Source: a virus. From it: a stretch of DNA of 64,000 bases. This document shows positions 6,142 through 61,762 of the stretch, in pieces. The DNA is taken from IMG/VR virus record IMGVR_UViG_3300006310_000001, one strand, 5' to 3'. The notes beneath the pieces are model-generated. The model made no database searches. It was not told the origin of the DNA and saw only the letters and a list, made by a program, of their open reading frames with translations. Made by a program: the position numbers and the translations under genes. Numbering within the stretch: position 1 is the stretch's first letter; every line of letters starts with the position of its first letter.

Positions 6142-6733
6142 ATTGATACCCAAACCAACCAGTTATGATATATTTTTCGTGGGTCTTGGAAATTTGTCCG
6201 CTATGTGTATGTGTAAAGTCAGTCGGCCAAATCAAAGTCAAACCTTTTTCAGCAGGAGTTGTTGCATTTTGATATTTAAAATGTGTACCACCGTTAGGAA
6301 CATCATTTAAATAAGTCATCCAAACAAGACAACGGTTTTCGTGCCTGGAAGTTCTTTCACAATGCTTAGTAAAATAACCTCCACCTGGTGGATAGTATTG
6401 TAAATTTCCTCCTTCAACCATTCCATATCTTTCAAACTCTTTAACTTCAGGATATTTCTCTTCGTATAGACCAACACATTCTTTCAACGCATTTTTATAT
6501 TTCATAAACCTTGGTTCTTCCCAATTTGGATCTAATCCAATATCTATAGAATCTTTTACTTCTTTATTAATTTTTGAAGTGAAACCTACAACACCTGGTT
6601 TTTGTGCTTGTTTATTCTCTTTAAATAAATTTATAAGTCCATCACAAATACCAGAAGGAATATACCAACCTCCTATACAAGAAGTTGTTGGTATAATATA
6701 TTCTCTATGTTTTGGCATTACTTTGTATTGCAC
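6137..6733 (-). CDS. 2OG-Fe(II) oxygenase (prolyl-hydroxylase-like)
   Basis: LQYYPPGGGY..HCE, LVWMTYLNDV..GGT.F, LIWPTDFTHTH.G, KYIITGW. Probable GTG start at 6733 after GGAGG (ORF track starts 6745). Confidence 0.85.
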   Translation of the reverse strand: MQYKVMPKHREYIIPTTSCIGGWYIPSGICDGLINLFKENKQAQKPGVVGFTSKINKEVKDSIDIGLDPNWEEPRFMKYKNALKECVGLYEEKYPEVKEFERYGMVEGGNLQYYPPGGGYFTKHCERTSRHENRCLVWMTYLNDVPNGGTHFKYQNATTPAEKGLTLIWPTDFTHTHSGQISKTHEKYIITGWFGYQL

Positions 6734-7922
6734 TTTTACCTCCACATTTTTTCATAGCCGCTTTTAGTTTTACTACCATATCAAAGATTAATGCGTCTGT
6801 ATGAAATGGTGTAGGAGTAAATCTTAATCTTTCAGTACCTACAGGAACAGTCGGCCAATTAATAGGTTGTACATAGATACCTTCTTTATATAAAAGTTCA
6901 TCTGATATTGCTTTAGCTCTTTTAGGGTCTCCAATAATTACAGGAACAATATGACTATCATTTTTCATAACTTCTATACCTTGTCTAGCAAGTTCTAATT
7001 TAGTTTTATTTGCTCTTTCGTGTATTTGTTCTCTTAATTCAGGATGGTCTCTAACATATTTAATACTTGTTAAAGCACCAGCACAAATTACTGGACTTAA
7101 ACTAGTTGTAAATATAAAAGCACTTGCCAAACTTCTTATGGCGTCAATAAAATCTTTTTTTCCTGCAATGTATCCACCTTGTACTCCAAATGCTTTTGCT
7201 AATGTTCCATTAATAATATCTACTTCTATATTATCTCTTTCAGTAATACCACCACCTGTTGCACCATATAAACCAACAGCGTGTACTTCATCTAAAAATG
7301 TTATTGCATTATATTTTTTAGCTAGTTCTACTATTTCTTTTACTGGTCCAATATCTCCGTCCATAGAATATACACTTTCAAATACTACACATTTTGGACC
7401 TTCGTATGATTTTAAAATTCTTTCTAAATCTTCTACATCATTATGTTTAAATATTTCTTTCTTACATCTACTATGCCTAATGCCTTGTATAAGAGAAGAG
7501 TGATTTAATGAGTCTGATATATACAATAAGTCAGGTATAATTTTTCCTAAAGTTTCTAAAGTTGTTTGATTAGCATTATATGCTGAAGTAAATATTAATG
7601 CCTTTTCTTTTTTATGAAAATCTGCTAATTCGGTTTCTAAAGCATTATGGTAGTGAGTAGAACCAGATATGTTTCTTGTACCTCCAGCACCTGCCCCACT
7701 TGATTCTAATGCTGTTTTCATTGAGTCTATAACATAAGAGTGTTGTCCCATACCTAAATAATCGTTAGAACACCAATTGACTATTTTTTTAATTGAGTAT
7801 TTTGAATACCAAATAGCGTGAGGAAAGTTTCCTCTAGTCCTAACTATATCATTAAAGACTCGGTATCTTCCATCTTCTTTATATTCATTTATTATTTTTG
7901 TAAATTCTTCTAAATGTTTCAC
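6705..7922 (-). CDS. hemA: 5-aminolevulinate synthase (Shemin/C4 pathway)
   Basis: WCSNDYLGM, GAGAGGTRNISG, SDSLNHSSLIQGIR, FESVYSMDGD, DEVHAVGLYG, PLP lysine in GTLAKAFG, PTVPVGTERLRFTPTPFH. GTG start with GGAG SD. Confidence 0.95.
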   Translation of the reverse strand: MKHLEEFTKIINEYKEDGRYRVFNDIVRTRGNFPHAIWYSKYSIKKIVNWCSNDYLGMGQHSYVIDSMKTALESSGAGAGGTRNISGSTHYHNALETELADFHKKEKALIFTSAYNANQTTLETLGKIIPDLLYISDSLNHSSLIQGIRHSRCKKEIFKHNDVEDLERILKSYEGPKCVVFESVYSMDGDIGPVKEIVELAKKYNAITFLDEVHAVGLYGATGGGITERDNIEVDIINGTLAKAFGVQGGYIAGKKDFIDAIRSLASAFIFTTSLSPVICAGALTSIKYVRDHPELREQIHERANKTKLELARQGIEVMKNDSHIVPVIIGDPKRAKAISDELLYKEGIYVQPINWPTVPVGTERLRFTPTPFHTDALIFDMVVKLKAAMKKCGGKSAIQSNAKT

Positions 7923-11173: not shown

Positions 11174-11851
11174 TTATATCTTCGGAAACAAATTATCAGT
11201 ACAGAATAGTTTTATATCATCTTCAGGCAGTCCAAGAGTTTTCATTACTCTAGGGGTGTGTGGATTTTGTTGTTGGTGTTCGCAATAGAAGTTTTGCGCT
11301 CTTATTACATCTTCTTCCTTTGAATCGCTATTATAATGACCAATTTTGTCAAGATAATTTTCTAAATTAGACGTAGCTAGAGTACATATTTGGTTTAATT
11401 CTTTTTCTTCTGTTACTCTACCAGCAGCAATCATACCAGGACTAAAGATAGCCTTTGCCCAATCAGGCAATTCTCTTTCTTTAGATGGTTTAAACCATTT
11501 ATTCTCTTCTATAAAATACTTTGTTAAGGGATGGTCTTTTAATAATAGTGGACTAAAATCGTGAAAGACACCTGTTATCTTTTTCTTACCTGCAATAACA
11601 TCAAATCCATAAATTGGACCACCATTTGTTAAATTTGGAAATAAACATATATGTGCCATCCAAAGACCTTTTGTTTCTCTGGCGTCCACTACGTCTACGT
11701 GAGCACGTCTTACACTCATATTAGACCAAGTACGGTTGGTCCAAGTATCATTATTAAATCTATCCATACCCTCTTCGTTGTATTCTTTACAACGTCTATC
11801 AAGTATAGCGATTATTTCTTTTTCTAATTTAATTAGTCGTTCCCAAATCAT
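11174..11851 (-). CDS. pcyX: Ferredoxin-dependent bilin reductase, PcyX-like
   Basis: RRAHVDVV, WMAHICLFP (His), PIYGFDVIAG (Asp), VFHDFSP, YCEHQQQNPHT; adjacent to heme oxygenase. The bilin reductase family is secure; PcyX versus PcyA subfamily is less so. Confidence 0.85.
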   Translation of the reverse strand: MIWERLIKLEKEIIAILDRRCKEYNEEGMDRFNNDTWTNRTWSNMSVRRAHVDVVDARETKGLWMAHICLFPNLTNGGPIYGFDVIAGKKKITGVFHDFSPLLLKDHPLTKYFIEENKWFKPSKERELPDWAKAIFSPGMIAAGRVTEEKELNQICTLATSNLENYLDKIGHYNSDSKEEDVIRAQNFYCEHQQQNPHTPRVMKTLGLPEDDIKLFCTDNLFPKI

Positions 11852-12449
11852 CTTTAACCTCGTTAGTTAAAATTAAAGGTTTTGAATAATCCATATCGTT
11901 CATTTCTTTGAACAATTGTGTAGCAGTTGCAAAACAAAATTTAACTTCATTTAGAATATTAAGTTTATAAACATTTAAATAACTGTTTATCATTTCTCTT
12001 ACTATTCGTTTATACTCTTTTATTTCTTTATGTTTAAACTTGTAATAACGATTAGGTCCTGGTGTTCTTTTCATTATCATTTGACCACCAGATACATCTC
12101 CTAAATGTCTAGTATAGATATGACCGTATAATTTTTCTGCGTCTTCTTTGATTGTTTCAATATGAGCAACATAATCTTTAGTACTTTGAGTTACTGTTGG
12201 AAGGTCTTCACTTGTCCATAATGCTTTAAAATCATAATGTAAATGTTCTGCTCTAGGTAAATTAGGAGTTGTACGAAATAGAGAATTTTCTATTCCATAT
12301 TTTTCTAATATAGCATAACATTGTAATTGATTGTAAAGATAGGTTGCATAAAGTCTAGGTTCAATAGAACCTGACATAAGAGTTTTGACAAACTCTTGTC
12401 TTTCAGCGTTTTGGTGTATATCTTTGGTTAATTCTTTGATGTCATACAT
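11829..12449 (-). CDS. hemO: Heme oxygenase
   Basis: Proximal His in TKDIHQNAE, distal helix HIYTRHLGDVSGGQ. Confidence 0.92.
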   Translation of the reverse strand: MYDIKELTKDIHQNAERQEFVKTLMSGSIEPRLYATYLYNQLQCYAILEKYGIENSLFRTTPNLPRAEHLHYDFKALWTSEDLPTVTQSTKDYVAHIETIKEDAEKLYGHIYTRHLGDVSGGQMIMKRTPGPNRYYKFKHKEIKEYKRIVREMINSYLNVYKLNILNEVKFCFATATQLFKEMNDMDYSKPLILTNEVKDDLGTTN

Positions 12450-28451: not shown

Positions 28452-29015
28452 TTCACGGTAAGGTAAATTAAAATTTTTATAACCATCAACGTCTAAAATT
28501 GCAACATTTTGCCAGCAAAAAATATCGTTTGGATTTTCATCAACATTTTGATTACAGGTAAAGTACATTTTAGGCAACAGCACTAATTTGTGTTTGTGAT
28601 TAATATTCCACCTCTTTATCATCTTTTTCATAGCAGCTCTTCTTTTAATACCAGCTATTGAAAAGAAAGGTATCAAGTTTTTTTCTAACGCTATTTTTAT
28701 ATGTAAAGGTAATAAATGAGTTGTAGCAATTCCACCTGTTTGATAAGAATTCAATGTATTACTTCTTACCTTTTTAAAATAATAACATCTATCTAATACT
28801 CTTACAAAATTAGAAGGCCAAAATTTACTTTGAAACATTCCTGCCATTGCAATAACTTCATTTTCATATTCTACAATATGATAATTTAAATAATTTGATA
28901 GTCTTCTATCAAAATTGTGAAAATTATGATAAGAGTCTTTTACTGCTTTAGATGATAATTTAGATAATGTATCTTTATCATTTAAAACATTTTTTATATT
29001 AATATCCGCCTTCAT
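28437..29015 (-). CDS. Putative GNAT-like acyltransferase
   Basis: YHIVEYENEVIAMAG...RVLDRCYY pattern suggests a GNAT fold; weak. Confidence 0.4.
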   Translation of the reverse strand: MKADINIKNVLNDKDTLSKLSSKAVKDSYHNFHNFDRRLSNYLNYHIVEYENEVIAMAGMFQSKFWPSNFVRVLDRCYYFKKVRSNTLNSYQTGGIATTHLLPLHIKIALEKNLIPFFSIAGIKRRAAMKKMIKRWNINHKHKLVLLPKMYFTCNQNVDENPNDIFCWQNVAILDVDGYKNFNLPYRELKRN

Positions 29016-29928
29016 TTGCTACCACGTGTTCAAAGAAAGGTGCAACTTTAAAATCAGGTGTTAATCTACCTCTTCTAGTTTGACCTGCAAAAGGTATTTT
29101 ACCGCCATTGCCTTTCCAATTTGCTATTTTAAACCATATACCACTTTTATGTAATAGTTTACCTTCTTGTTCTTTTTTTAATGGAAAAATAAAACTATCT
29201 ATTTCTGGTTCGGTGTTTTGATAGATAGGTTTGTTTCGCCACGATTCAATATAATCTACGCTAAGACCAGTTTGTTTACTTGCCAACCCTATCAAATCAT
29301 CCATAGTATAATTTCCACTTTCATTATCATACATACTTCTACCAAGATTGCCTACATTTTTTATTCTAGCCATTACATTTTTAACTTCTAATCTTTCAAA
29401 CATAGATAATAGTCTACTTATTACATCATCATTAATACCTTTTACAATAATTGTTCCTGTGTCAATAAGAAATTTATTATTTTTTAAATTTTCAAGAGCT
29501 TTTACTTTTTTAGTAGCACATCTTAACTCATCTATTTTCTCATACCAATCATCATTATCAGCACCATTCATACTAATATAACAATGTGTTAAACCGTGTT
29601 GTTTTAAAGTTTTTACATATGAGTCATTTGCTAATCTTAAACCGTTTGTAATTAAAGTACACCTATGACCAGTTTTTTTAATAAGAGTTATCATTTCTGG
29701 TAAATCTTTACGCATAGTTGGTTCTGCACCAATAATTCGTATCATTGTTTTTTTAGGAAACTTTTTAATTGCCTCTAACATTTTGTTAATATCCATATCA
29801 GGTATTTCTCTATTTGGAATATAACAATTCTTACAATTCATATTACATCTATGTGTAACATCAATTACAACATCTTGAAAAATGTTATTTTCAGGTTCTA
29901 GCTCGTAATAATTTGGTATTGTTTTCAT
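28999..29928 (-). CDS. Radical SAM enzyme (MoaA/NifB/PqqE-like core, no SPASM domain)
   Basis: CNMNCKNC (CxxxCxxC), IIGAEPT, ITNG. Confidence 0.9.
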   Translation of the reverse strand: MKTIPNYYELEPENNIFQDVVIDVTHRCNMNCKNCYIPNREIPDMDINKMLEAIKKFPKKTMIRIIGAEPTMRKDLPEMITLIKKTGHRCTLITNGLRLANDSYVKTLKQHGLTHCYISMNGADNDDWYEKIDELRCATKKVKALENLKNNKFLIDTGTIIVKGINDDVISRLLSMFERLEVKNVMARIKNVGNLGRSMYDNESGNYTMDDLIGLASKQTGLSVDYIESWRNKPIYQNTEPEIDSFIFPLKKEQEGKLLHKSGIWFKIANWKGNGGKIPFAGQTRRGRLTPDFKVAPFFEHVVANEGGY

Positions 29929-30436
29929 TAATCTCCATTTTTCCTAACAATGCAATTCTTTTATCTTTGTTAATATTGTATACCGAATGGTGATAAGCGG
30001 AGTTAATAAACCAAACCTCTCCTTCACGCATTATAATTTTATTTTTTTTTGAAATAAATTCGTGTTCGCCTTTTAACATAACAATTAATCTATAATAATA
30101 AGGGTTATCTAAATGTTCAGGTATATTTGATTTTTTTTCTAATTCTGCATATCTCCAATCAGATTTATCTATAAAATTTTTTAAGCATTCTATATCAATA
30201 TTAAAGTAATCTATATGCCTTTGATTATAAGTTTTTCCTGCTGGTGTTAAATAATTATGTTCTACACCATACACACCCTTTCTATTATTAATAGCACGTT
30301 CATTACTTATAGGTGTTTTATCAACATCTTTTAATAGAGATAATCTTTTACTTTCTTCAATATTACCAAGATTAATAACTTCAGGAAGTTTTTTTAATCT
30401 AGCGTATTGGCGAAGAGTTTTTATATCTGTTTTCAT
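29891..30436 (-). CDS. Asp/Asn beta-hydroxylase-like Fe(II)/2OG cupin
   Basis: HLD...RLIVML...GEVWFINSAYHHSVYN...RIAL. Confidence 0.7.
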   Translation of the reverse strand: MKTDIKTLRQYARLKKLPEVINLGNIEESKRLSLLKDVDKTPISNERAINNRKGVYGVEHNYLTPAGKTYNQRHIDYFNIDIECLKNFIDKSDWRYAELEKKSNIPEHLDNPYYYRLIVMLKGEHEFISKKNKIIMREGEVWFINSAYHHSVYNINKDKRIALLGKMEINENNTKLLRART

Positions 30437-30981
30437 ATAAACAATTCTCCCTTTTGGTCTAATTCTGCCAATTTTTCTATTGAATCATAAAAACATATTT
30501 GAAAAGTATATCTTGCTTTTTCACTTTTATTATCAACACTATGATTATTTCTAGTTGTAATGATTAAAGGTTTCTCTTTATAATATACAGCTTCATTAAA
30601 AGTTTCATCTTCATTATAATATTTTATGGGAGAAAAATCTTTTAATTCTGGATATAATGCCCAAGTAATACAAGACGTTCTTCCAAGGTGGTCATCTTTA
30701 TGAATACCATAGTTATTGTTACCTATTCCAGTTCCATCATTTGGAGCAAACTTCATAAAAACTGCTATAAAAAAATTCAATTTAGGGTTGGTCTTATTAA
30801 TCATTTTTTTAACCAAACCTACTATAGGAACAGCTCCTTTGTATGTACTAACAACTTGTATTCCTGTAGGTGTTCCTTTATAAGTTTTATAATTTTCATA
30901 ATTATAACTCATTGCTTCAGACAAAAGTTGCTTTCTTTCATCAATACTTATTATATCATTTATACATTGGTATGAGTTCAT
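30433..30981 (-). CDS. Putative Fe(II)/2OG oxygenase-like cupin
   Basis: HKD...HSVDN...RYTFQI facial-triad pattern. Confidence 0.55.
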   Translation of the reverse strand: MNSYQCINDIISIDERKQLLSEAMSYNYENYKTYKGTPTGIQVVSTYKGAVPIVGLVKKMINKTNPKLNFFIAVFMKFAPNDGTGIGNNNYGIHKDDHLGRTSCITWALYPELKDFSPIKYYNEDETFNEAVYYKEKPLIITTRNNHSVDNKSEKARYTFQICFYDSIEKLAELDQKGELFI

Positions 30982-31602
30982 TTAACTACTCATCATATTA
31001 TGTAATATTAAATCAGTAGATTTTTCTGTTAAGATAGTATTTGCTACTATAAACATTGATTCTTGTTTACTTGTAAATACTATATGTTCTTTAGCAGTAT
31101 TTAAAAAATATAATCTTCCGTATTCAAAATTCAAAACTTTATTATCTAAAATAAAATAATTATATGGTGGATTACAATTATAGATTGGAACAAATAATCT
31201 ACACGTTGGTAATTCTCTATCAAAATGGTCTCTATGAGATGGAAATTGTCCACCCGCTGACATCTTAATAATATGAGTTCTTCCTAAATGATTTTTAAAT
31301 TTTGATAATACTGATTCAACATAAGGCCAAAAGGGGGTTAGAGTTTTAAAATCTGGTTCATTAAGTTTTAAATTATTTTCTCTATTATATTCTTTTATTG
31401 AATCCAAATCTGGTATGCCAGAAAAATTACCATCCAAACTAGTAATACTTAAACCATACCTAGCAATCTTTTTTCTAGGATTATATTGAACCCATTTATC
31501 ATCAAATAATTTTAAACCTTCCTCAAATATTTTATACTTTAAATTACAATTCAAAGGAATAAGGTCGCCATATCTTGCTATTGTGTCATATAAGTAACTC
31601 AT
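30982..31602 (-). CDS. Asp/Asn beta-hydroxylase-like Fe(II)/2OG cupin
   Basis: FPSHRD...RLFVPI...GRLYFLNTAKEH. Confidence 0.7.
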   Translation of the reverse strand: MSYLYDTIARYGDLIPLNCNLKYKIFEEGLKLFDDKWVQYNPRKKIARYGLSITSLDGNFSGIPDLDSIKEYNRENNLKLNEPDFKTLTPFWPYVESVLSKFKNHLGRTHIIKMSAGGQFPSHRDHFDRELPTCRLFVPIYNCNPPYNYFILDNKVLNFEYGRLYFLNTAKEHIVFTSKQESMFIVANTILTEKSTDLILHNMMSS

Positions 31603-31604
31603 AT

Positions 31605-32357
31605 TTAATTCGTTCTCCTATTATCTTCAATATATTTCTTTACTTCATATTGAGGTTCCCAACCATAACTTGTCATTGCGTCTATGTTTGCTTTGTTGTC
31701 AAGTCTTTCAGTATCACCACCAACTCTTTTTTCAGGAGTAATTCCAAAGTAGTCCATCATATCAGTTAACTTATTTGTAATACCTGTTCCTATATCTATT
31801 GCACCTGTCTTTTCAGGAAATGCTGTAATTGATTTTTGTCTTAATATAGATTCAATCGCTGAACAAATATCATACACGTGTATAAAATCTCTACTATGAT
31901 TTGTATTAACATATGGCACATCATTTTTTAAAATTTTTGGTATCAACATAGTATCTCTTGCACCTGGTCCATATACAGTAGTAAATCTCATACCTAAACT
32001 ATTTGCAGGAGCAATTTGTTCCATACTATACTTACTCATTGCATAAGGATTTCTCCAGGGTTCATATGCAGTACTTGAACTTGCATACAAAATTCTTGTA
32101 TCTTTAAAATAGTCAAATATTCTTTGACTTACGATAACGTTTTGTTTCCAATAGTCTGTAGGATTTTCAAAACTTTGTCTGACACCAGATAGACCTGCCA
32201 GATGTACAACACAATCAACATCATATTTTAAATCACAGGTAAGTAATTCTTTACCTGTATTACGGTCTAAACCAATTACATCAAAATGTTTTTCTGATAA
32301 CCATACTGAAAGATTTTTACCAATAAATCCATCACTACCTGTTAATAATATCTTCAT
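31605..32357 (-). CDS. NAD-dependent epimerase/dehydratase (extended SDR)
   Basis: ILLTGSDGFIG, VVHLAG, YASSS, YAMSK (YxxxK), RFTTVYGP, RDFIHV.D. Confidence 0.9.
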   Translation of the reverse strand: MKILLTGSDGFIGKNLSVWLSEKHFDVIGLDRNTGKELLTCDLKYDVDCVVHLAGLSGVRQSFENPTDYWKQNVIVSQRIFDYFKDTRILYASSSTAYEPWRNPYAMSKYSMEQIAPANSLGMRFTTVYGPGARDTMLIPKILKNDVPYVNTNHSRDFIHVYDICSAIESILRQKSITAFPEKTGAIDIGTGITNKLTDMMDYFGITPEKRVGGDTERLDNKANIDAMTSYGWEPQYEVKKYIEDNRRTN

Positions 32358-32920
32358 AATCCTATCACCATATATCTTTCATACTTATCCAATTTTAAAG
32401 TGCCCCTATATAATACCTTTTCTAATTTTAAACTCTTCTCAAATTCTACTACACTATTATGACAATTAATATGCTCGTCAATTGAAAAATAATTATTTGA
32501 TTGAAATATAACTAACGATCCTTTCTTTCTTCTCTTTAAAAAATCATCTATTAAATGTTGACCAAGATGTTCGCAAGAAGTACATATAACTATATTAAAT
32601 CTTTTAATATCATAATACTTTACATCTGCTTCTGTAAATGTAATATCTTTATAAAGTCTTTGCCCAATCTTTTTACACATTAGGTCTTTATCAAAGGAAA
32701 CAATCTCTCCTTTAGTATATTCTTTTAGCTTATTTGCTAAATGCCCATACCAACCTGCCGCTATAACTACAGAAGGAGAATTAAAAAAGCTAAAGTATTT
32801 CGTTGACTTCTCTATAAGCCAATCTTTACTTTTCTCTTGATTTTCGTTTAGTGAATTTATAATAGACTTGACCAGTCTATCCGTGGTCACTCCATCAATC
32901 ACTTTTAATATAGTATCCAT
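32354..32920 (-). CDS. Putative class I SAM-dependent methyltransferase
   Basis: VVIAAGWYG (motif I-like), SFDKD, IVICTSCEH. Confidence 0.55.
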   Translation of the reverse strand: MDTILKVIDGVTTDRLVKSIINSLNENQEKSKDWLIEKSTKYFSFFNSPSVVIAAGWYGHLANKLKEYTKGEIVSFDKDLMCKKIGQRLYKDITFTEADVKYYDIKRFNIVICTSCEHLGQHLIDDFLKRRKKGSLVIFQSNNYFSIDEHINCHNSVVEFEKSLKLEKVLYRGTLKLDKYERYMVIGL

Positions 32921-32944
32921 AATCTTTAATAAATAGTCTAGTAT

Positions 32945-32952
32945 TATTTATA
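32945..32952 (-). promoter_or_regulatory. T4-type late promoter driving the leftward arm of the modification island
   Basis: Exact TATAAATA on minus strand. A near-match AATAAATA on plus at 32928-32935 may drive the rightward arm. Confidence 0.65.
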
Positions 32953-33830
32953 TGAGTATGAAAAGAGCAATTTACAGTATCTACATTGATGTGCCAGCGA
33001 AAGAGCATTATGGTAAATCAAAGCATAGAAAAGACACAGCAGAAAAGGCAATCATAACCGTTAATGCATTTAAAAAGCACTATAAAAGGTTAATTGAATC
33101 CAAACGCAACTATGCTGACACCATAGGTGCAACTTTTATTATGTTTGAATATGATAAACGTTATCAAACCTTTGAAAAAAATCTACGTAAAGACTTTCCA
33201 GAATTAACAGGTTATGAAATTGTAAATTTTTACAAGATACATTTACTATATGAACTAGCAAAAAAATATGATGAAATTTTATATTTAGATTTTGATGCTG
33301 TACCTGTAACCAAAGATTCCTTTTTTGATATATGGGATATACAAAATCATATTGCTGTTTATAATAACAATACTATGATTAATAAAATGATGATGAGTAT
33401 AGATGAAATTAAACACGGCATTAGAAGTCCAACAGCAAAGTATTTTAATTGTCAAGCAATGCTTATAGAGAAAGGACTTGATCCTAAAAATGATGTTATC
33501 AATACTGGTATCATTGGTGCTTCAAAAGAACAAATTTTAAAATTAGATTTCTTTGGTGATTTTAAAGATACAATAGATTTAATGACAAAATTAAGAAATG
33601 ATAAAGATGGTATGTATCCACAAAATATTATTGATATGTTTAGATATGATAATGAAACAATCTTTTCATATAAAGTAAATATAAATAAAATTGGTATACA
33701 ATGGTTAGATAGAAGGTGGCATTACTTCTTTGATAGTCAACATTTTATACCAAAAGAAACAAAAATAGTACACGCTGTCTGCAAAGACTTTGACGCCGTA
33801 TGGAGATATGATGAAAAATATAATCTATAG
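32952..33830 (+). CDS. GT-A fold glycosyltransferase (GT8/galactosyltransferase-like)
   Basis: FYKIHL, ILYLDFD (DxD), INTGII, DNETIF, WH, IVH. Confidence 0.75.
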   Translation: MSMKRAIYSIYIDVPAKEHYGKSKHRKDTAEKAIITVNAFKKHYKRLIESKRNYADTIGATFIMFEYDKRYQTFEKNLRKDFPELTGYEIVNFYKIHLLYELAKKYDEILYLDFDAVPVTKDSFFDIWDIQNHIAVYNNNTMINKMMMSIDEIKHGIRSPTAKYFNCQAMLIEKGLDPKNDVINTGIIGASKEQILKLDFFGDFKDTIDLMTKLRNDKDGMYPQNIIDMFRYDNETIFSYKVNINKIGIQWLDRRWHYFFDSQHFIPKETKIVHAVCKDFDAVWRYDEKYNL

Positions 33831-34668
33831 TATATACATAGAAAATAATGAACCTAATTTAAGTGAAAAACATCAATTCACTAAAATACAATTAGCAAAA
33901 CACTATCAAAAATTAATAGATGTTAAGAAAGAATATGCTAAGCATTGTAATGCTGAATATAGACTTTATGAAAACGACACCTATTGGCAAAAATTTAAAA
34001 AGAAATTTAGTGGTTATCAATTTGATATAATCAATCTATACAAGATACATATATGGGAAAAACTAGGTGAAGAATTTGACAATGTTCTTTATTTTGATTT
34101 TGATGTAGTACCAAATACAACTGAATCCTTTTTTGAAAAGTTTGATATGAATAAGATATGTGTTCACGCTCCCAATGCAACTAAAGAAAATATATGGAGT
34201 ACAAGCGCATTAAAACGTTATAAGAAACAAATAAACACATATGAGGAAATAGTTAGCAATTTTGATGGATATAGTATGTACGTTAAAGCTATTGCTAAAA
34301 AATCAATGTTAGCATTAGATAACAATTTTGATACGGATTATTTAATAGCAAATACAGCTATATTAGGTGGCAATTCAAATGCTATAAAACAATTAAAATA
34401 TACAGAAAAATTAGATGAACTTTTAGATGTTTTATATACAGCAAAAAAAGAAAAACTATTTGGAGAAGAAATATCAAAACAATTTTTTCCTAACAATGAA
34501 GTCTTTTTCCATTATCTATTAGACAAGTATAATATAAATTGGTATAATATACCTAAAGAATGGCACACTTATGTAATGCCAGAAGATGAACACACTAAAG
34601 AATTAAAATCTGCTAAACTAATACATTTAATTAGTAAGAAATTTGAAAAGTTATGGGAGATAATATAA
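33790..34668 (+). CDS. GT-A fold glycosyltransferase, paralogue of the upstream gene
   Basis: LYKIHI, VLYFDFD (DxD), ANTAIL, NNEVFF, WH, LIH. Confidence 0.75.
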   Translation: MTPYGDMMKNIIYSIYIENNEPNLSEKHQFTKIQLAKHYQKLIDVKKEYAKHCNAEYRLYENDTYWQKFKKKFSGYQFDIINLYKIHIWEKLGEEFDNVLYFDFDVVPNTTESFFEKFDMNKICVHAPNATKENIWSTSALKRYKKQINTYEEIVSNFDGYSMYVKAIAKKSMLALDNNFDTDYLIANTAILGGNSNAIKQLKYTEKLDELLDVLYTAKKEKLFGEEISKQFFPNNEVFFHYLLDKYNINWYNIPKEWHTYVMPEDEHTKELKSAKLIHLISKKFEKLWEII

Positions 34669-35789
34669 TGTGGATATTTCCTATTGATTTAAAACTTGAT
34701 ATTACAACTAGATGTAATGCTGGATGTCCTCAATGTCATAGAACAAACTTAACTGGATTAAAAGCACACGAATGGTTACCAGATATTGTATGGTCTTTAG
34801 ACCAATTTAAAAGAGCTTTTCCTGTACAAGTTGCTAAACACATTTATAATTATAATATTTGTGGTACGTGGGGAGACCCTTTAACAAATAATGACTTACT
34901 AGATATAGCAAGATATATTAGACAAGTAAATCCAGAAGCACATATTTCTATTAATACAAATGGTTCATTAAGAAATGAAGATTGGTGGTGGGAGTTTGGA
35001 TCAATAGGAGGTAAAAACCTACACGTTGTTTTTGCTGTTGAAGGCACCACACAAAAAATGCACGAAAGATATAGACAGTTTACTTTTTTGGATAAAATTT
35101 TAAAAAATATGGAGATGTTATCTAACACTCCAGCAAGAATACGAGTTGATACTTTAGTATGGAAACATAATGAAAATCATTTAGATGAAATTGAAAAATT
35201 AGTTATGGATCACGGAGCAACCAAACACAACAGAATTTTAACTGACCGTTGGGAAGGTCGTAATGAAATGACTTTTTTTACTGGAAAAGAAACTGCAAGT
35301 TTAGAAAAAGCTGGTGTTGATTTTTCAAAAGAAGAAGAGACCTATAACAAACGTGAAGCAGATTGTTTTACAGATGATGAAGGTAGAGAAAAAAAAGTTG
35401 GTGACTTTACTAAACAAACAACAAAATTAACAGTACTAGATAGTAAAATGGTTAAAAAAATAAGAAAAGAAAAAAAAGAAATAATAGATATAACTTGCAA
35501 ATGGCAAAAAGCAAATAAACTTGAAATTGAATCAAGTGGTCAAGTTTTACCTTGCTGTTATTTCTCTAATCCTTATTTTTTAGATGAACACAATCCTTCT
35601 AAAGAAAGTGATTTTATGAAACATCCAGTTATGAAAGAATATGAAAAATATAAAAAAGAACTTAATATTTTTACTTCTAGTTTACTAGATATAATAAATC
35701 ATAAATGGTATACAGAAACATTACCTAATAGTTGGAATGATGTTAATGCTGTATGGCAATGCCAAAGACATTGTGGAAAGTGTAAATGA
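34653..35789 (+). CDS. Radical SAM enzyme with SPASM/twitch-like C-terminal domain
   Basis: CNAGCPQC, CGTWGDP, NTNG; C-terminal CKW...GQVLPCCY...CQRHC. Confidence 0.9.
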   Translation: MGDNIMWIFPIDLKLDITTRCNAGCPQCHRTNLTGLKAHEWLPDIVWSLDQFKRAFPVQVAKHIYNYNICGTWGDPLTNNDLLDIARYIRQVNPEAHISINTNGSLRNEDWWWEFGSIGGKNLHVVFAVEGTTQKMHERYRQFTFLDKILKNMEMLSNTPARIRVDTLVWKHNENHLDEIEKLVMDHGATKHNRILTDRWEGRNEMTFFTGKETASLEKAGVDFSKEEETYNKREADCFTDDEGREKKVGDFTKQTTKLTVLDSKMVKKIRKEKKEIIDITCKWQKANKLEIESSGQVLPCCYFSNPYFLDEHNPSKESDFMKHPVMKEYEKYKKELNIFTSSLLDIINHKWYTETLPNSWNDVNAVWQCQRHCGKCK

Positions 35790-36556
35790 TATACGATTTC
35801 TCAAATAGAAAAATTAATATAGACTCTAGTCATAAGTGTCCTTTAGAGTGTCCTAAATGTCAAAGACAAGCAATAAGAAGAACTGGACATCCAGTACCTG
35901 GACAAGATATGCCGTGGGATGATTTTATAAAAATTGCTAATTACTTTGAAAAGGGACTACTTTTTTGTGGTCAAATATCAGACCCTACTGCTAATCCTTT
36001 ATTGATTAATATGTTAAAATATTGTTACAAAAAAAATATTCCAGTAACGATTAATACAGCATCCACACACAAACCTGTAAAATGGTATGAAAAGGCATTT
36101 GAAGCAAACCCTAAAGGAGTTTGGTTGTTTGGTATTGATGGTCTACCTAAAGATAGTCACAAATATAGAATTCATCAAGATGGTGAAAAATTATTTGAAA
36201 TGGCAAAGTTATGTGCTAAAAAATGTAAAACTTCTGTTTGGCAATATATTGTTTTCAGATATAATGAATATGATATAGAAGAAGCAAGAAGTATGGCAAA
36301 GGCAAACAATATTGAATTTGATTTAGTTTTTTCAGGTCGTTGGCATTACGGTGGTGACAAATATAAACCTAGAAATCCAAATTACTATGTTAACCGTTAT
36401 AATGATGATTTACGAATGTTTAAAAATATAAAAAATAAAGGTTATAAAGATTGGAAAGTAGCATTAGATGAATTAAAAGATGAAAGATTTTTTAAAAATA
36501 CACATAGTCCTAAAAAAACAATTTTATCAACTAGGAAAATAAATGAAAAAGATTAA
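35786..36556 (+). CDS. Radical SAM enzyme lacking its SPASM domain
   Basis: CPLECPKC, CGQISDP, INT, FGIDG, WQYIVFRYNE; paralogous to the upstream rSAM. Confidence 0.88.
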   Translation: MIYDFSNRKINIDSSHKCPLECPKCQRQAIRRTGHPVPGQDMPWDDFIKIANYFEKGLLFCGQISDPTANPLLINMLKYCYKKNIPVTINTASTHKPVKWYEKAFEANPKGVWLFGIDGLPKDSHKYRIHQDGEKLFEMAKLCAKKCKTSVWQYIVFRYNEYDIEEARSMAKANNIEFDLVFSGRWHYGGDKYKPRNPNYYVNRYNDDLRMFKNIKNKGYKDWKVALDELKDERFFKNTHSPKKTILSTRKINEKD

Positions 36557-37628
36557 TCCAAAATGTTTATCGTTTAAAGAACTTTCTTATACAGCAACTG
36601 GTTATATAATGCCTTGTTGTTGGGTAGACACTCCTATAGCTTTAATAGAACCTCAAATAGCAAGATTAAGACAAAAACATTTAAAACTTGCAAATAACGA
36701 AAAGATAGAAGATATTATTAATAGTAAAGAATGGAAAAACTTTTTTGAAGAATTAAAAACTAATCCAGCTACACTTTGCCAAAGATTTTGTAGTGTACCT
36801 TTACATCATAGTGCTAATAGAGCAAGAGAAAACCCACACGACAAATACGCACTTACAGAAGATAGAAAAACTAATATTAAAATATGTTGTGTTTATTTTG
36901 AAGGAAAATATTCACCTGATTATGTTGAAAAACTTTATAATGGATTAAAAAAATATTGTTTCCTACCATTTGAATTTATTTGTTATAGCGATAATCCAAA
37001 TGTTAAAGCAGATAAAGTTATTCCTTTACCAAAAGATAGTAAAATAAAACGCCATTGGCATAAATTATCTTTCTTTAATCCAGAATTTATGGAACAAAAT
37101 CCTAGAGATGAAATTATTATTATGGATATTGACCAGATTATTGTAAATAATATGGATGATTTAATAGGTTGGCCTGTAGTAGATAATGAATTAGTATCTT
37201 ATGACAAATGGTGGGGATTACCAAAACCAAAAGTTCAAGGCGGTTTCTTTAAATTTAAATCTGGACAATGTAAAGTTATATGGGATACTTTTATAAAAGA
37301 TCCAGAAAAATGGCAACTACATTATTATAATACAGGACAAGTACATTACAAATATTTTGGTGAACAAAACTTTGTTGAAGATATAGCAACTAAAAATGAT
37401 ATAATAATATCTTTAGTTAAAGGTAAATGGATTGGTAAATATACTTTAGATAAAGAACAAAATTTAGAAAATAATGTAGAGTATTGTAAAAGATTTGAAG
37501 AAGATTATATGATATTAGATAAACCACATCCTAATATAAAAATAGTACACTTTGCTGGACCCGAAACTGATATACACTCTTGTAAAGAAGAATGGATTAA
37601 ATCTTATTGGTATCTTCCCAAAGTTTAA
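36543..37628 (+). CDS. Fusion of a SPASM-like Fe-S domain (N) and a GT-A glycosyltransferase (C)
   Basis: N-terminal KC...GYIMPCCW...CQRFC; C-terminal ICCVYF, IMDIDQ (DxD), GEQNF, IVHFAG. Confidence 0.75.
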   Translation: MKKINPKCLSFKELSYTATGYIMPCCWVDTPIALIEPQIARLRQKHLKLANNEKIEDIINSKEWKNFFEELKTNPATLCQRFCSVPLHHSANRARENPHDKYALTEDRKTNIKICCVYFEGKYSPDYVEKLYNGLKKYCFLPFEFICYSDNPNVKADKVIPLPKDSKIKRHWHKLSFFNPEFMEQNPRDEIIIMDIDQIIVNNMDDLIGWPVVDNELVSYDKWWGLPKPKVQGGFFKFKSGQCKVIWDTFIKDPEKWQLHYYNTGQVHYKYFGEQNFVEDIATKNDIIISLVKGKWIGKYTLDKEQNLENNVEYCKRFEEDYMILDKPHPNIKIVHFAGPETDIHSCKEEWIKSYWYLPKV

Positions 37629-55072: not shown

Positions 55073-55714
55073 TTATACTCGTTCTACTTTTATTTTTTTA
55101 TTGAAAGAAGGAAATGTAATGCTTGGATCCATATGATGTTCTTTTCGTGGTCTTGTTTTATCACCATAACCTACACCCATTAACAAAAATACATCTTCAC
55201 CTAATATACTTTTAACTTTATCTCCATCAAAACACTGGCAACAACCTGATTCATATCCTAAAAGATTAGCAGTAAGAGTTAAATATCCAGCAGCAATTCC
55301 AATTGCACGATTTTCATCCGTCTTTCCGTCTTCAGAATTTCTTTCTTCTTCTATGCCAAGTTCATTCTCTTTATCCGTTCTGGCTTCCATATTATCATCT
55401 CTATCTTTTGCAAAAACAAATAATGTATTTGCTAATACTTGAGGATTAGTAATTGTTAAATAATTACCATCTTTGTCCTTTTGCAAACGATATGTAAAAC
55501 CATCTGTAGCATTATGTATTGCTTCAATCTTATTACGGTCTTGTGTATATAGAACTTTATAAAATACACGGTTTTGTTTAGATGAACATTGTGTCACCGC
55601 CTGTTCCATCGTTTTAATATCTTTATCTGGAATTTGTTTAGATAAATCCCAATTCCTATTACATTGCTGTGATTTTGCAATTGTTCTTTCTAAAAATTTA
55701 TTATATTCACTCAT
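55073..55714 (-). CDS. Nitroreductase-like flavoprotein
   Basis: SQQCNRNWD.SKQIP...A...C.SKQN...Y; IGIAAGYL.LTANLLGY.SGCC.CF; LLMGVGY. Confidence 0.7.
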   Translation of the reverse strand: MSEYNKFLERTIAKSQQCNRNWDLSKQIPDKDIKTMEQAVTQCSSKQNRVFYKVLYTQDRNKIEAIHNATDGFTYRLQKDKDGNYLTITNPQVLANTLFVFAKDRDDNMEARTDKENELGIEEERNSEDGKTDENRAIGIAAGYLTLTANLLGYESGCCQCFDGDKVKSILGEDVFLLMGVGYGDKTRPRKEHHMDPSITFPSFNKKIKVERV

Positions 55715-57563: not shown

Positions 57564-57770
57564 ATGAAAAAACTACTTGAATATTTAACTATCATTTTAT
57601 CAATAGTAGGTACTTTCTGTTTAATCGGTGCTGTCGGCGCAATTGACGGCGGTTATAACGGAGTTCCAATGAACGATAATTGGTTTTTATGTGGTACTTT
57701 GTCATTGTTAGGAATTGCTATGTTTATTTTAGCATTATACTCGCAAACGTTGTATTCTGAACAAGACTAA
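57564..57770 (+). CDS. Small two-TM membrane protein
   Basis: Two hydrophobic helices; strong promoter and SD. Confidence 0.7.
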   Translation: MKKLLEYLTIILSIVGTFCLIGAVGAIDGGYNGVPMNDNWFLCGTLSLLGIAMFILALYSQTLYSEQD

Positions 57771-58639
57771 CCACTAGATTTTAATAAATAGCCTATCTCT
57801 ATTCCTAGCTCACTTGCTTTATCAATAGTTTTAGATGATTTTGAATAGAATCTATCTTTACCATCTGGTGAAAATAGTTCTGCTTCAAGATTAATCGTAT
57901 TACCATCAATATTTGCAAATACACCTACCGCTGTATCACAATCTCCTTCTATAATTTTTAAAACGTTTCTTTCTGCCTTAACACAATTGTGTGTTTCTGT
58001 ATGATTAACACTTTTTAATAACTCAATTATCTCTTCATCATTATCTCTACATTGTAAGGCAATAACACCTTGTCCTGCACACGGTATCATTTCACTAGTA
58101 GAAAAAGTTTGAGAAATCTTGTTCTCTAAACCTAATGATTGAATTCCTGCATAAGACAAAATAATAGCGTCAAATAAACCATCATTTAGTTTTTTAATTC
58201 GTGTATCAACGTTTCCTCTTATCAACTTACATATAAGGTCTTTTCTTATATTCTTTAATTGGAATTCTCTTCTAAATGAAGAAGTACCAATAATTGAATT
58301 TGGAGCTAAATCTTTTAAGTGTTTATTATCTCTACTAATTAAAATTTCTCTTGGATCGTTTCTTTCTAAAAAACAGTTTGTTAATAAACCTTCTGTTTCT
58401 TCCGTTGGCATATCTTTTAATGCGTGAACGGCTATATCTATTTTTTTATCTAATAATTCAACTTCTATCATCTTGGAAAAGAGACCTTTACCTCCAGCTT
58501 CAGAAAGTCTTACATCTTTAAGTTGGTCACCTTTGGTTTCAATTTCTTTGATAAGTATTTCTTTGTTTAATACTGCTTTAGCTTTTTCAGCATAGATACG
58601 TGCTAATTTACTTCCTCTTGATCCTATTGTGAGCGACAT
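57767..58639 (-). CDS. hemC: Porphobilinogen deaminase (HMB synthase)
   Basis: IGSRGSKLA, TKGD, GGKGLF, DIAVHALKDMP, GTSS.RR, RGNVDTR, GQG, AER, cofactor Cys in EGDCDTAVG. Start moved to ATG 58639. Confidence 0.95.
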   Translation of the reverse strand: MSLTIGSRGSKLARIYAEKAKAVLNKEILIKEIETKGDQLKDVRLSEAGGKGLFSKMIEVELLDKKIDIAVHALKDMPTEETEGLLTNCFLERNDPREILISRDNKHLKDLAPNSIIGTSSFRREFQLKNIRKDLICKLIRGNVDTRIKKLNDGLFDAIILSYAGIQSLGLENKISQTFSTSEMIPCAGQGVIALQCRDNDEEIIELLKSVNHTETHNCVKAERNVLKIIEGDCDTAVGVFANIDGNTINLEAELFSPDGKDRFYSKSSKTIDKASELGIEIGYLLKSSG

Positions 58640-59424
58640 AATCGTCTTGCACCATAAGTTATCATATAACAAGCACCTGCTCTTTTGAATATGTGATATG
58701 TTTCTTCTAAACTACCAGGCGCACCAATACCTAACCATTCTCCAGATGTTTGATATACACCTACAGGTTTCTTTGTAATATTTCTTATTGGTTCAATTAA
58801 GTCTAAACTTGTCATACCAGGTTTTACCATTAATTCATCTGCGCCATCATCTGAATATTTTATAGACCTTATAATTGCCTTATGTCTATCGCTAACATCT
58901 AATTGATAGGGTCTATGAATACCTTTTGGTATCTTCATTACATCACGCCAACCTCTATAAAATGTTGAACGAAATTTTGTACTATAACTCATTACAGGTA
59001 TCTGACCATTATTAATTGATTTAATATTCTTAACTGTATTGTCTTGACAATCACTTGGCGCTATTGTAGCACCTGACGCTGTGTAAATCTCTAAAGCTGA
59101 TTGTAGTAATAGGTCATCTGTTTTTTCTTGGTCTCCTGTTACACAACAATGTCCATCGTGGGTATAAGAACATAAACATACATCAACATTTAATTTTATA
59201 GGTATATGTGATAGACGTTGTAAAGAGTGAGCAGTTTCACACACTTTGTCAAAGTTAAATAACTTAAATTCAGGTATGTAAAATAAAAGAAATTCTTTTA
59301 CTCCTAAATCAATATCTTTCTTAACACGTTCTTTGACATCTTTTGCACTAAAGATTTTATTATCTTCTCCTAGTCCAGTTTCTCTTGTAGAGTTACTAGC
59401 AAAGATTGGTTGTATTAATCTCAT
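58624..59424 (-). CDS. hemB: Porphobilinogen synthase (ALA dehydratase), compact Zn-type
   Basis: DVCLCSYTHDGHC (Zn triad), APSD, MSYSTKF and MVKP (Schiff-base lysines), YQLD, YQTSGE; only 266 aa. Confidence 0.9.
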   Translation of the reverse strand: MRLIQPIFASNSTRETGLGEDNKIFSAKDVKERVKKDIDLGVKEFLLFYIPEFKLFNFDKVCETAHSLQRLSHIPIKLNVDVCLCSYTHDGHCCVTGDQEKTDDLLLQSALEIYTASGATIAPSDCQDNTVKNIKSINNGQIPVMSYSTKFRSTFYRGWRDVMKIPKGIHRPYQLDVSDRHKAIIRSIKYSDDGADELMVKPGMTSLDLIEPIRNITKKPVGVYQTSGEWLGIGAPGSLEETYHIFKRAGACYMITYGARRLCRSQ

Positions 59425-60254
59425 TTTGCTGACTTTGCTAACATTTGATGGTTTCTTTTATACATCAATGCTGTTCGTTGTTGTTCTTCGTGAGGTGCTA
59501 CTAATTTAAATTTAGATATACCCATTTTCTCATACATAGGTAAATCAAAATAAAATTCACTCCAAGTTATATCATCATTATAAAAAGTACGTTCCATACC
59601 TAAATGAATTAAACTACATATCATTCCTTTTCTTTCTTCTCTATTAATTTTAGAAGTTGTACCATAACAAACTTTACTAGGACAATTATAAGAACACTCT
59701 ATGTTCATAAACAATCTTAATAAATCTTTTCTCTTAATACTTTCTATAAACTTTAAATCATCATTACTATGAATAGGTAAAACAATTGTATCGTATAAAT
59801 TCTTTGCAACAACTTTTTCATAATGTTCATTGTCTGTAATATCTTGTATGCAACTTGCTTCTATTTTATAATCAGGAAAATCATTTCTAATATATTCAGC
59901 CAACTTATCAGTTGCTGTAATAACTGCATTTCCTTTTCTATGATATTCTTTTAAAAACGGTTTACTTTCTTTATACTTATCATCTGTTATAAATTTATTC
60001 TGTAAAGTAAGTTTAAGACCAATACCCTTATCATAAATCCATTCAATATCTTTCTCAAACATTTCTGGAGTTTCTGCAGGACGTCCACCGTATAAAGGAC
60101 AATGTTCTTCCGTTTGTCCAAAAACAGAATCTATATCATCATAGCCAAATGAAAAATTAGAATGTTCTTCTGCGTGGCGTATATGACTATCTAAAAATGC
60201 TTTGATATGTACGTCCCATTGTTTTCTTGCTGAACAAGATATTACTCTTCCCAT
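59421..60254 (-). CDS. U32-family-like Fe-S protein of unknown function
   Basis: YGGR, GIGLKLTLQN, AVITATDKLAEYIRNDFPDYKIEAS, DTIVLP, LFMNIECSYNCPSKVC, later MIC, GISKFKL; follows the U32 TIM-barrel motif order. Confidence 0.6.
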   Translation of the reverse strand: MGRVISCSARKQWDVHIKAFLDSHIRHAEEHSNFSFGYDDIDSVFGQTEEHCPLYGGRPAETPEMFEKDIEWIYDKGIGLKLTLQNKFITDDKYKESKPFLKEYHRKGNAVITATDKLAEYIRNDFPDYKIEASCIQDITDNEHYEKVVAKNLYDTIVLPIHSNDDLKFIESIKRKDLLRLFMNIECSYNCPSKVCYGTTSKINREERKGMICSLIHLGMERTFYNDDITWSEFYFDLPMYEKMGISKFKLVAPHEEQQRTALMYKRNHQMLAKSAK

Positions 60255-61021
60255 ATCGCACCTGGTGGCATAGACATTAATATTGCTTCAGGATTTCCTC
60301 CACTTCTCAATCCAAACTTTGTTCCTCTATCATACATTAAATTAAATTCAACGTATCGTCCACGTTTTAATAGTTGTGTATACTTATCTTGCTTCGTATA
60401 TTTTAAATTCATCTTTGGTGTTATAATCTCTTTAAGTAATTGACAAAAGGTTCTACCAACATCTTTAACAAATTCAAAATGTTTCTTACCATATTTGTAA
60501 TCAAAGAAGATACCACCTACACCTCTTGTTTCTTCTCTATGGGGTAAATAAAAATACTCATCACACCATTTCTTATATGTTTTGTAATAAAGTTTATTAT
60601 GTCTATCACATAATTGTTTTAATCTGTAATGCCATAAATTTCTTTCTACATCATCTTTCAAACACGGTGTCATATCTGTACCACCACCAAACCAACTTTT
60701 TTCTGTTTCAATATATCTTGTATTAAAATGTATTGCAGGTACTTTAGGATTCTTTGGATGTAATACTACTGATACTCCTGTTGACCAGAAGTTTCTACTA
60801 TGTTTTGTACCAGGGATTTCTTTTGCGAAGTCTTTTGGAAACTTACCTACAACATTACTAAAGGTGACACCTCCCTTTTCAATCACGTCACCTTTAATTG
60901 TTTTAAAGTTACCAAATTTCCATTTGTTATCTTTAAATTTTGCTTTAGTTTCTAACTCTTCAATAGTCTGACAAATTGATTTTTGCAATTCAATAAACCA
61001 TTGCAACGCTTCTTGTTTCAT
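60242..61021 (-). CDS. hemF: Oxygen-dependent coproporphyrinogen III oxidase
   Basis: EKGGV.FS.V, GVSVVLHPKNP.VP..HFN.RY, WFGGG.D.TP, WCDEYFYLPHR.E.RGVGGIFFD, RGRYVEFNL.YDRGT.FGL. Confidence 0.96.
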   Translation of the reverse strand: MKQEALQWFIELQKSICQTIEELETKAKFKDNKWKFGNFKTIKGDVIEKGGVTFSNVVGKFPKDFAKEIPGTKHSRNFWSTGVSVVLHPKNPKVPAIHFNTRYIETEKSWFGGGTDMTPCLKDDVERNLWHYRLKQLCDRHNKLYYKTYKKWCDEYFYLPHREETRGVGGIFFDYKYGKKHFEFVKDVGRTFCQLLKEIITPKMNLKYTKQDKYTQLLKRGRYVEFNLMYDRGTKFGLRSGGNPEAILMSMPPGAIWEE

Positions 61022-61024
61022 TAT

Positions 61025-61762
61025 CTAGTCTGTTTCTGCTGCTACTTTCTGAGCAAACTGTTCCAATTTTCTTTCTAATGGGTCTTGAAGCACTTTTGAT
61101 GTATCTTTCGGATGATTAAAGAATAAATTACCTGATACACTTACTCTTGTTCCTGGTGTATGAAAAGGAATTACTTGATGTCTTAATTGTGCTGGAAATA
61201 TCCACAGTCCACCATTTTGGGGTTCATAACCATAGGAGTGTTCTGTCCATTTTGGATTAGAGTGTTCACCATAATGAAACGTTATTCCACCAGGACCAAA
61301 ACTCTTGCCTTTATACTTTTTTCTTTCTTCTGTTAAGTCTGGTGTCTTTAAAAATATAACCCAAGATAACATACCACCGTGTGTATGTTCAGGATTATCT
61401 TCGTTCTCTTTCATATAATTAATCCATAAATCTATGAGTGTGAATTTAGTTGAAAACTGTTCTTCTGTAAAAGGTTTTCCAATATACTCCGCTGAACTTT
61501 GTACATAATCATCTATGTATCGTTGAAACTCTTTTACAAACCATTCTTTATCTTCTTTTGTATAACCTCGTTGGTCTTCCATTATACCTGCTAAGTTACT
61601 ATTGCCCGAACCTTCACGACTTTTATTACCTCGGTCCTCAAGTCCTTCTAATAATTCTTCGTGAGCAAAATACATAGCCACATAAGGACCAAAATTTAAA
61701 TTGCCACCTTTTTGTTCTTGTTCTATCTTTGTGTTTTTGTTATCTAGTTCTATCATATCCAA
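61025..61762 (-). CDS. Putative 2OG-Fe(II) oxygenase (TIGR02466-like)
   Basis: WINYMK...NPEHTH..LSWVIFL, IFPAQLRHQV.PF, RVSVSGN. Confidence 0.75.
   Translation of the reverse strand: MDMIELDNKNTKIEQEQKGGNLNFGPYVAMYFAHEELLEGLEDRGNKSREGSGNSNLAGIMEDQRGYTKEDKEWFVKEFQRYIDDYVQSSAEYIGKPFTEEQFSTKFTLIDLWINYMKENEDNPEHTHGGMLSWVIFLKTPDLTEERKKYKGKSFGPGGITFHYGEHSNPKWTEHSYGYEPQNGGLWIFPAQLRHQVIPFHTPGTRVSVSGNLFFNHPKDTSKVLQDPLERKLEQFAQKVAAETD

Follow-up and report, generated by a model that had tools for sequence, protein, structure and literature searches.

A predicted U32-related barrel family that forms an exchangeable cassette beside pelagimyophage hem genes and recurs next to sulfotransferases

The DNA considered here is the IMG/VR virus record IMGVR_UViG_3300006310_000001, a stretch of 64,000 nucleotides (the window), and our subject is one gene in it, a 277-aa open reading frame lying between hemF and hemB (Table 1). 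An earlier note on this DNA, made from the sequence alone, had described the frame as coupled to both neighbors, and the coordinates, the overlaps, and the profile matches of the neighbors confirm it. The target gene begins with an ATG at 60254 and so overlaps the 3' end of hemF (TAA at 60244-60242) by 13 nt; its TGA (59423-59421) shares an ATGA with the start of hemB, giving a 4-nt overlap. The hem cluster is directly upstream of the PAAR, gp25-like, and gp6-like baseplate genes of a T4-like phage, a setting that the earlier note had missed; terminase, neck, and sheath genes are also found in the window, and its gp6 shares 71% identity with the Mosig (Pelagibacter phage) protein and 55% with the HTVC008M one. 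Given these structural genes and the gp6 identities, the source is a pelagimyophage, a marine SAR11-type phage. The target belongs to a so far unannotated family that appears to be distantly related to the U32 proteins, may hydroxylate its substrates without O2, and behaves in phages as a movable cassette.

No match to the target was found in Pfam (at E ≤ 0.01 and also at E ≤ 10), NCBIfam, or PHROG. A database clustered at 90% contains 147 close homologues, of which nearly all come from marine metagenomes and none carries a name, and an exhaustive HMMER scan collected 376 representative clusters (50% identity) at E ≤ 1e-3. Among cultured phages there was no real homologue, the sole match being a faecal phage contig at 26% identity, and the nearest genome record, the 38-kb fragment G001, had no match to the U32 family PF01136. 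Only eight alignment columns are invariant among 59 diverse members, and four of these are the cysteines C187, C191, C196, and C213. The cysteine cluster to which attention had been drawn earlier, ECSYNCPSKVC with a later cysteine, is both present (E186-C196, then C213) and a signature of the family, and almost every full-length representative has the CX3CX4C block. Conservation on this scale goes well beyond chance and marks the open reading frame as real. The family is large and common in marine phages and Proteobacteria, yet goes undetected by the present profile libraries.

The predicted fold places the family near U32. An AlphaFold2 model of the target, built from the 59-member alignment, had a mean pLDDT of 97.1 and a pTM of 0.93 and shows eight beta strands alternating with helices, with the cysteine block lying inside an extended insert that separates strands 7 and 8. 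The comparison with U32 structures that the earlier note had suggested came out in its favor: in a Foldseek search of the PDB, the U32 protein Mk0906 (5d88) ranked first at E 1.1e-7, while generic TIM barrels scored about 1e-4, so that the modelled target has the U32-type (beta/alpha)8 barrel of 5d88. In the ESM Atlas, comparison by structure gave TM 0.73 to a cluster that has PF01136 on 26% of its members, and comparison by language-model features gave 0.94 to one with PF01136 on 16%. The cluster ligands of U32 proteins and the four cysteines of this family occupy the same beta7-beta8 segment.

Profile comparison points the same way, though weakly. An hhalign alignment of the family with a U32 profile, a small one of only 4 full-length sequences plus fragments of 30-159 aa, gave E 2e-4 and a probability of 44-45% over 110-185 columns. 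In it, R58 falls on UbiU R35, D116 on D96, P127 on P108, and K250 on the KIEGR lysine; these positions are near-invariant in the family and conserved in U32. Against single E. coli sequences, UbiU aligned at E 0.0036 and UbiV gave no match. Sequence searches of the PDB with the target protein and two family profiles returned nothing usable. PF01136 was seen below threshold in 2 of the 59 members (best E 0.031) and, one spurious family aside, was the only Pfam family to match more than one of them.

Mk0906 of Methanopyrus kandleri, the best fold match, is a minimal single-domain U32 protein, but it is only 13-16% identical to the target and spaces its cysteines differently. The barrel core of UbiU/UbiV, RlhA, and TrhP of E. 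coli aligns weakly by profile with that of the family, and they too have four conserved cysteines between beta7 and beta8. However, their motif is CX6CX15CX3/4C (PMC6747719), whereas that of the target family is CX3CX4CX16C. The target also has no C-terminal extension domains and no UbiT-like partner; the partners of its family are sulfotransferases and a glycosyltransferase. The earlier description of the protein as U32-like thus holds for the barrel and for the location of the cysteines, but not for a PF01136 match or the canonical cysteine spacing. Because a U32-like barrel is combined with a non-canonical spacing, we read the target as a member of a new family distantly related to U32 and outside PF01136, a placement supported at the level of the predicted fold and remote homology. 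As in U32, the four invariant cysteines are most probably the ligands of a [4Fe-4S] cluster.

The most recurrent association of the family is with sulfotransferases. Among the 150 best representatives there are 27 long forms, 22 of them with a sulfotransferase domain; the fused domains belong to four Pfam families and are found on either side of the barrel. Two of these fusions, P0022 and P0032, are marine phage proteins with 60% identity to the target. In Proteobacteria, where gene context was surveyed for one subset of the family (A3) since the full-family alignment is too divergent for search patterns, just two kinds of neighbor appear repeatedly in different lineages: a TPR-sulfotransferase (14 instances) and a sulfotransferase carrying a SEC-C motif (five). 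Nine loci of the second large clade of viral homologues have directly beside the homologue, in either order, a gene for a 235-aa product without annotation, which we call c18. No match to c18 was found in Pfam, PADLOC, or the sequences of the PDB. Its C-terminus aligns weakly with a Sulfotransfer_2 domain, and its structural model matches almost solely sulfotransferases that use 3'-phosphoadenosine-5'-phosphosulfate (PAPS), at E 0.01-0.3. It also contains the motifs FIHMxRTGGTS and VRxPxDWYVS, which we take to be PAPS-binding loops. Judging from the model, c18 is probably a new viral sulfotransferase family, always beside the U32-like gene. A literature search returned no paper connecting U32 proteins with sulfotransferases.

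The only chemistry so far tied to the U32 fold is O2-independent hydroxylation of aromatic or heteroaromatic carbons with a [4Fe-4S] cluster, for which prephenate is the oxygen donor in UbiU/UbiV (PMC6747719, PMC10990095). Sulfotransferases act on a hydroxyl acceptor, as does the TET-associated glycosyltransferase (TAGT) that adjoins the homologue in one phage lineage, which suggests that the family makes the hydroxyl that its partner decorates. In the mechanism that we favor by a modest degree, the four cysteines between strands 7 and 8 would hold the [4Fe-4S] cluster, and the barrel would hydroxylate an aromatic or heteroaromatic carbon without O2, in analogy to UbiU/UbiV, RlhA, and TrhP, possibly with prephenate as the oxygen donor. 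The new hydroxyl would then be the acceptor for a sulfotransferase or, in that one lineage, for TAGT. The substrate might be a nucleobase, a peptide side chain, or a small aromatic metabolite, with a pyrrole the least supported. The gene, its conservation, the modelled fold, the cysteine pattern, and the counts of its contexts are results; cluster binding and hydroxylase chemistry we infer from likeness to known proteins, and the coupling to conjugating enzymes from the fusions and neighbors. We regard the family as a likely U32-related, O2-independent hydroxylase whose product is probably conjugated and whose gene is a movable cassette rather than a step in the hem pathway.

For most U32 subfamilies no function is known (PMC10990095), and work on the prephenate-dependent hydroxylation chemistry of these proteins is at an early stage. 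To them we add a further U32-related family, one that has a distinct cysteine signature and a recurrent sulfotransferase partner and that current profile libraries do not see. The natural fusions offer an experimental handle: if the favored mechanism is true, the expected product in a heterologous host would be hydroxylated and then sulfated. A bolder claim would be that a new branch of U32-type hydroxylases and a dedicated conjugating enzyme make up an undescribed two-step module, whose substrate in pelagimyophages is a nucleobase, the protein standing in for TET beside TAGT, or, less likely, a pyrrole or porphyrin intermediate produced by the neighboring HemB. We consider this an unlikely extrapolation.

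Several points weigh against a hydroxylase with a conjugating partner. The target fails the PF01136 gathering score as well as lacking the canonical spacing of the cysteines, and the chemistry of the family may therefore differ from that of known U32 proteins. For RlhA and TrhP themselves, direct hydroxylase activity in vitro is still unshown (PMC10990095). The assignment of c18 draws on a mediocre model (pLDDT 73), weak E values, and motifs that resemble PAPS-binding loops. BLAST searches and the c18 HMM detected no sulfotransferase or TAGT homologue in the window, so the logic of hydroxylation followed by conjugation is not visible in this phage. Lastly, HemB is immediately downstream of the homologue in 14 of 49 viral loci, from two clades of the protein tree and mostly with a 4-nt overlap; the pair survives recombination and occurs once in a different genomic context (L034). 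One chance event would not give this pattern, which could mark a genuine functional connection.

Alternatively, the protein might be a nucleic-acid base hydroxylase like RlhA (ho5C in rRNA) and TrhP (ho5U in tRNA), used by the phage to modify DNA or RNA, with transferases of the TAGT type decorating the hydroxyl. Of the reactions characterized for U32 relatives, the nearest is the hydroxylation of pyrimidines at C5 (PMC6599085, PMC5727448). A TAGT (PF20691, E 8e-20) follows the homologue in one pelagimyophage lineage, and in L004 (172-3210), L005, L007, and L019 the genes run gp33, U32-like gene, TAGT, ThyX, gp59, with 4-nt overlaps. The usual partner of TAGT is a TET/JBP hydroxylase. No TET/JBP gene was seen in the 9 kb available at these loci, and the homologue occupies the place beside TAGT where that hydroxylase would be expected; hydroxylation and then conjugation would be the order of events in both. 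Such a gene order may represent a module for DNA modification whose hydroxylase is not of the TET kind, although TET/JBP enzymes are O2- and 2-oxoglutarate-dependent double-stranded beta-helix proteins, not a predicted Fe-S TIM barrel. At other viral loci, the homologue adjoins the small subunit of ribonucleotide reductase or an NT5C-like nucleotidase. However, the pairing with TAGT is limited to that lineage (five loci) and is not seen in the window, and in T4-like phages the region between gp33 and gp59 collects accessory genes of all kinds. The TPR-sulfotransferase partners of the bacterial homologues and one lasso-peptide cluster point instead to peptides or small molecules, and the target has no nucleic-acid-binding domain. 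We judge base hydroxylation to be unlikely.

Peptides are the substrate in another account, in which the protein tailors peptide or protein side chains together with a sulfotransferase, in the manner of RiPPs, peptides made by the ribosome and modified after translation; in phages, the modified protein would be of the virion or of the host. The fusion P0200 is the last gene of a lasso-peptide cluster (L010:982-9548), directly after the lasso cyclase, and this cluster encodes an HPr-kinase-like protein, a sulfotransferase, PqqD, a transglutaminase-like protease, and the Asn-synthase cyclase. TPR domains, present in the bacterial sulfotransferase partners, commonly bind peptides; in addition, a radical SAM gene is upstream of the homologue in L009, and in the window the target is beside baseplate genes. 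Against this, the contexts yielded a single RiPP cluster and no precursor peptide, and three other sulfotransferase fusions sit among unrelated housekeeping genes, where the context is uninformative. A role of this kind is rather improbable.

The earlier note had proposed that the target is a new enzyme of the tetrapyrrole pathway, which would replace the HemD or HemE step, modify a pyrrole or porphyrinoid, or provide an O2-independent counterpart to HemF and HemO. The setting makes this attractive. Viral alaS, hemO, and pcyX of pelagimyophages are described in passages of PMC11480375, and passages of PMC7029224 give coproporphyrinogen oxidase and porphobilinogen deaminase as unique to a "deep ecotype" pelagimyophage group; all of these genes are in the window. 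Its ALAS-like aminotransferase, ferredoxin-dependent bilin reductase, and heme oxygenase were confirmed (6705-7922 and 11174-12449 (-)), and the entry to and exit from tetrapyrrole metabolism are both phage-encoded, in agreement with PMC11480375. The hem genes of pelagimyophages are thus already known, and the question concerns the open reading frame between them; the passages searched in the same two papers do not mention it. Neither hemD nor hemE was found in the 64-kb window, and a tblastn search of it with the uroporphyrinogen decarboxylase (HemE) of related phages gave no match. Translational coupling of the target to hemF and hemB and the linkage to HemB noted above, direct and with HemB downstream, also favor a role in the pathway, and the many invariant charged residues of the barrel would suit a polycarboxylate substrate.

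However, the homologues are mostly unlinked to hem genes, contrary to what a pathway enzyme would lead one to expect. Among the 49 IMG/VR loci encoding a homologue, 35 have no hem gene, and HemF and HemC accompany HemB only in the closest group. In the reverse direction, 30 viral hemB loci had enough upstream sequence to judge, and a homologue was present in 10 and absent from 20. No hem gene appeared among the recurrent annotated neighbors at about 65 proteobacterial loci. Co-occurrence with hem genes, which the earlier note had named as a check, therefore speaks against its proposal. The operon also exists without the target: L145 (1004-3436) and L146 (4217-6649) have the 2-oxoglutarate (2OG) oxygenase, hemF, hemB, and hemC in order, with 99/94/95% identity to the window, and in them hemF ends 7 nt before hemB. 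In L148 (3312-6360) and L164, the slot of the target is filled by DUF454 and a canonical uroporphyrinogen decarboxylase (PF01208, E 1.2e-80), so the target is not needed as a substitute for HemE; where these phages have a HemE at all, it is of the usual kind. Gene overlaps, moreover, are routine in phages; the homologue overlaps TAGT by 4 nt in L004.

The history of the gene argues in the same direction. When the viral proteins are placed on a maximum-likelihood tree, copies linked to HemB fall in two clades with HemB-less clades between them (at least three changes), no specialized subfamily stands out, and the identities of homologue and HemB are incongruent between loci, for example, in L012. 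Both are as expected of cassettes shuffled independently in one hypervariable island. The G+C content of the target gene, 0.26-0.28 (positions 59200-60100 of the window), is below the 0.30-0.34 of its hem neighbors, which is consistent with a separate origin of the cassette. Upstream of the baseplate genes, the island is a patchwork in which cassettes can replace one another (hemF, hemE, hemB, hemC, DUF454, 2OG oxygenases, and the target), and the 2OG oxygenase is upstream in most related loci whether the target is present or not. The target is thus a free-standing, exchangeable cassette in this island, found in a third of viral hemB loci, unlike the established tetrapyrrole genes of pelagimyophages. 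As a dedicated step of the phage tetrapyrrole pathway it is not supported, and we regard such a role as quite improbable, which corrects an attractive but unsupported idea of a novel heme-pathway enzyme in these phages. It is very improbable that the protein is a U32 "peptidase" or collagenase as those names were once understood, or that it is an Fe-S or structural protein without catalysis: 5d88 does carry the title "U32 peptidase," but characterized U32 proteins are Fe-S proteins needed for hydroxylations and not proteases (PMC6747719, PMC10990095), and a catalytic pocket is suggested by the invariant cysteine block and by charged residues, likewise invariant, where the barrel strands end.

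Other family assignments were considered. A PADLOC match to CARF_HEPN (E 0.0017, 15.7 bits), which other family members do not share, was set aside as a chance hit. The target is not a radical SAM protein: it has no PF04055 match, whereas the bona fide radical SAM genes of the same window are readily detected, and its cysteine block is CX3CX4C rather than CX3CX2C and comes late in the chain, after beta7. Identity with HemD (PF02602) fails for want of a Pfam match, and the model is a single eight-stranded barrel, while HemD has a two-domain flavodoxin-like fold. The target likewise has no profile match to HemE (URO-D, PF01208), and no URO-D entry was among the 50 matches listed in either fold search with its model.

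Table 1. Positions of the target gene, its neighbors in the window, and the c18 genes of other viral loci
Feature	Position	Strand	Basis
U32-like (beta/alpha)8-barrel protein, 277 aa (target; founding example here of the unannotated family)	59421..60254	-	
Codons of C187, C191, C196, and C213 (CX3CX4CX16C; presumed [4Fe-4S] ligands, beta7-beta8 insertion)	59616..59696	-	alignments and model
hemF, O2-dependent coproporphyrinogen III oxidase, upstream neighbor	60242..61021	-	PF01218 4.7e-90; NF003727 above cut-off
hemB, porphobilinogen synthase, short 266-aa form, downstream neighbor	58624..59424	-	PF00490 1.3e-45
hemC, hydroxymethylbilane synthase	57767..58672	-	PF01379 3.9e-71; TIGR00212 1.7e-94, above cut-off
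2OG-Fe(II) oxygenase, constant upstream flank of the variable island	61025..61762	-	PF13759 1.5e-14; phrog_81
c18, examples	L001:7294-8001; L041:6991-7701; L045:1264-1959; L049:5294-5998; L052:6887-7591; L054:3919-4590		

The hem cassettes of the island occur in several orders: 2OG oxygenase-hemF-hemB-hemC; 2OG oxygenase-DUF454-hemE-hemB-hemC; 2OG oxygenase-hemB alone; and 2OG oxygenase-hemF-target-DUF454-hemB. The HemB of the window retains the Zn-Cys triad and both active-site lysines that form the Schiff bases. At 266 aa, compared with about 325 for cellular forms, it is shortened at the N-terminus and in internal loops and scores below the NCBIfam equivalog cut-off; the absence of the N-terminal arm may alter oligomerization.

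Two further regions of the window deserve mention. A nitroreductase-like open reading frame (55073-55714 (-); PF00881 at E 1e-4, just under the cut-off) separates the baseplate genes for gp25-like and gp6-like proteins; it is 100% conserved in L011 and missing from most related loci. Between structural genes, at 28999-37628, a bidirectional block contains three radical SAM genes, one of them with a SPASM domain, together with a GT8 glycosyltransferase and an NDP-sugar epimerase.

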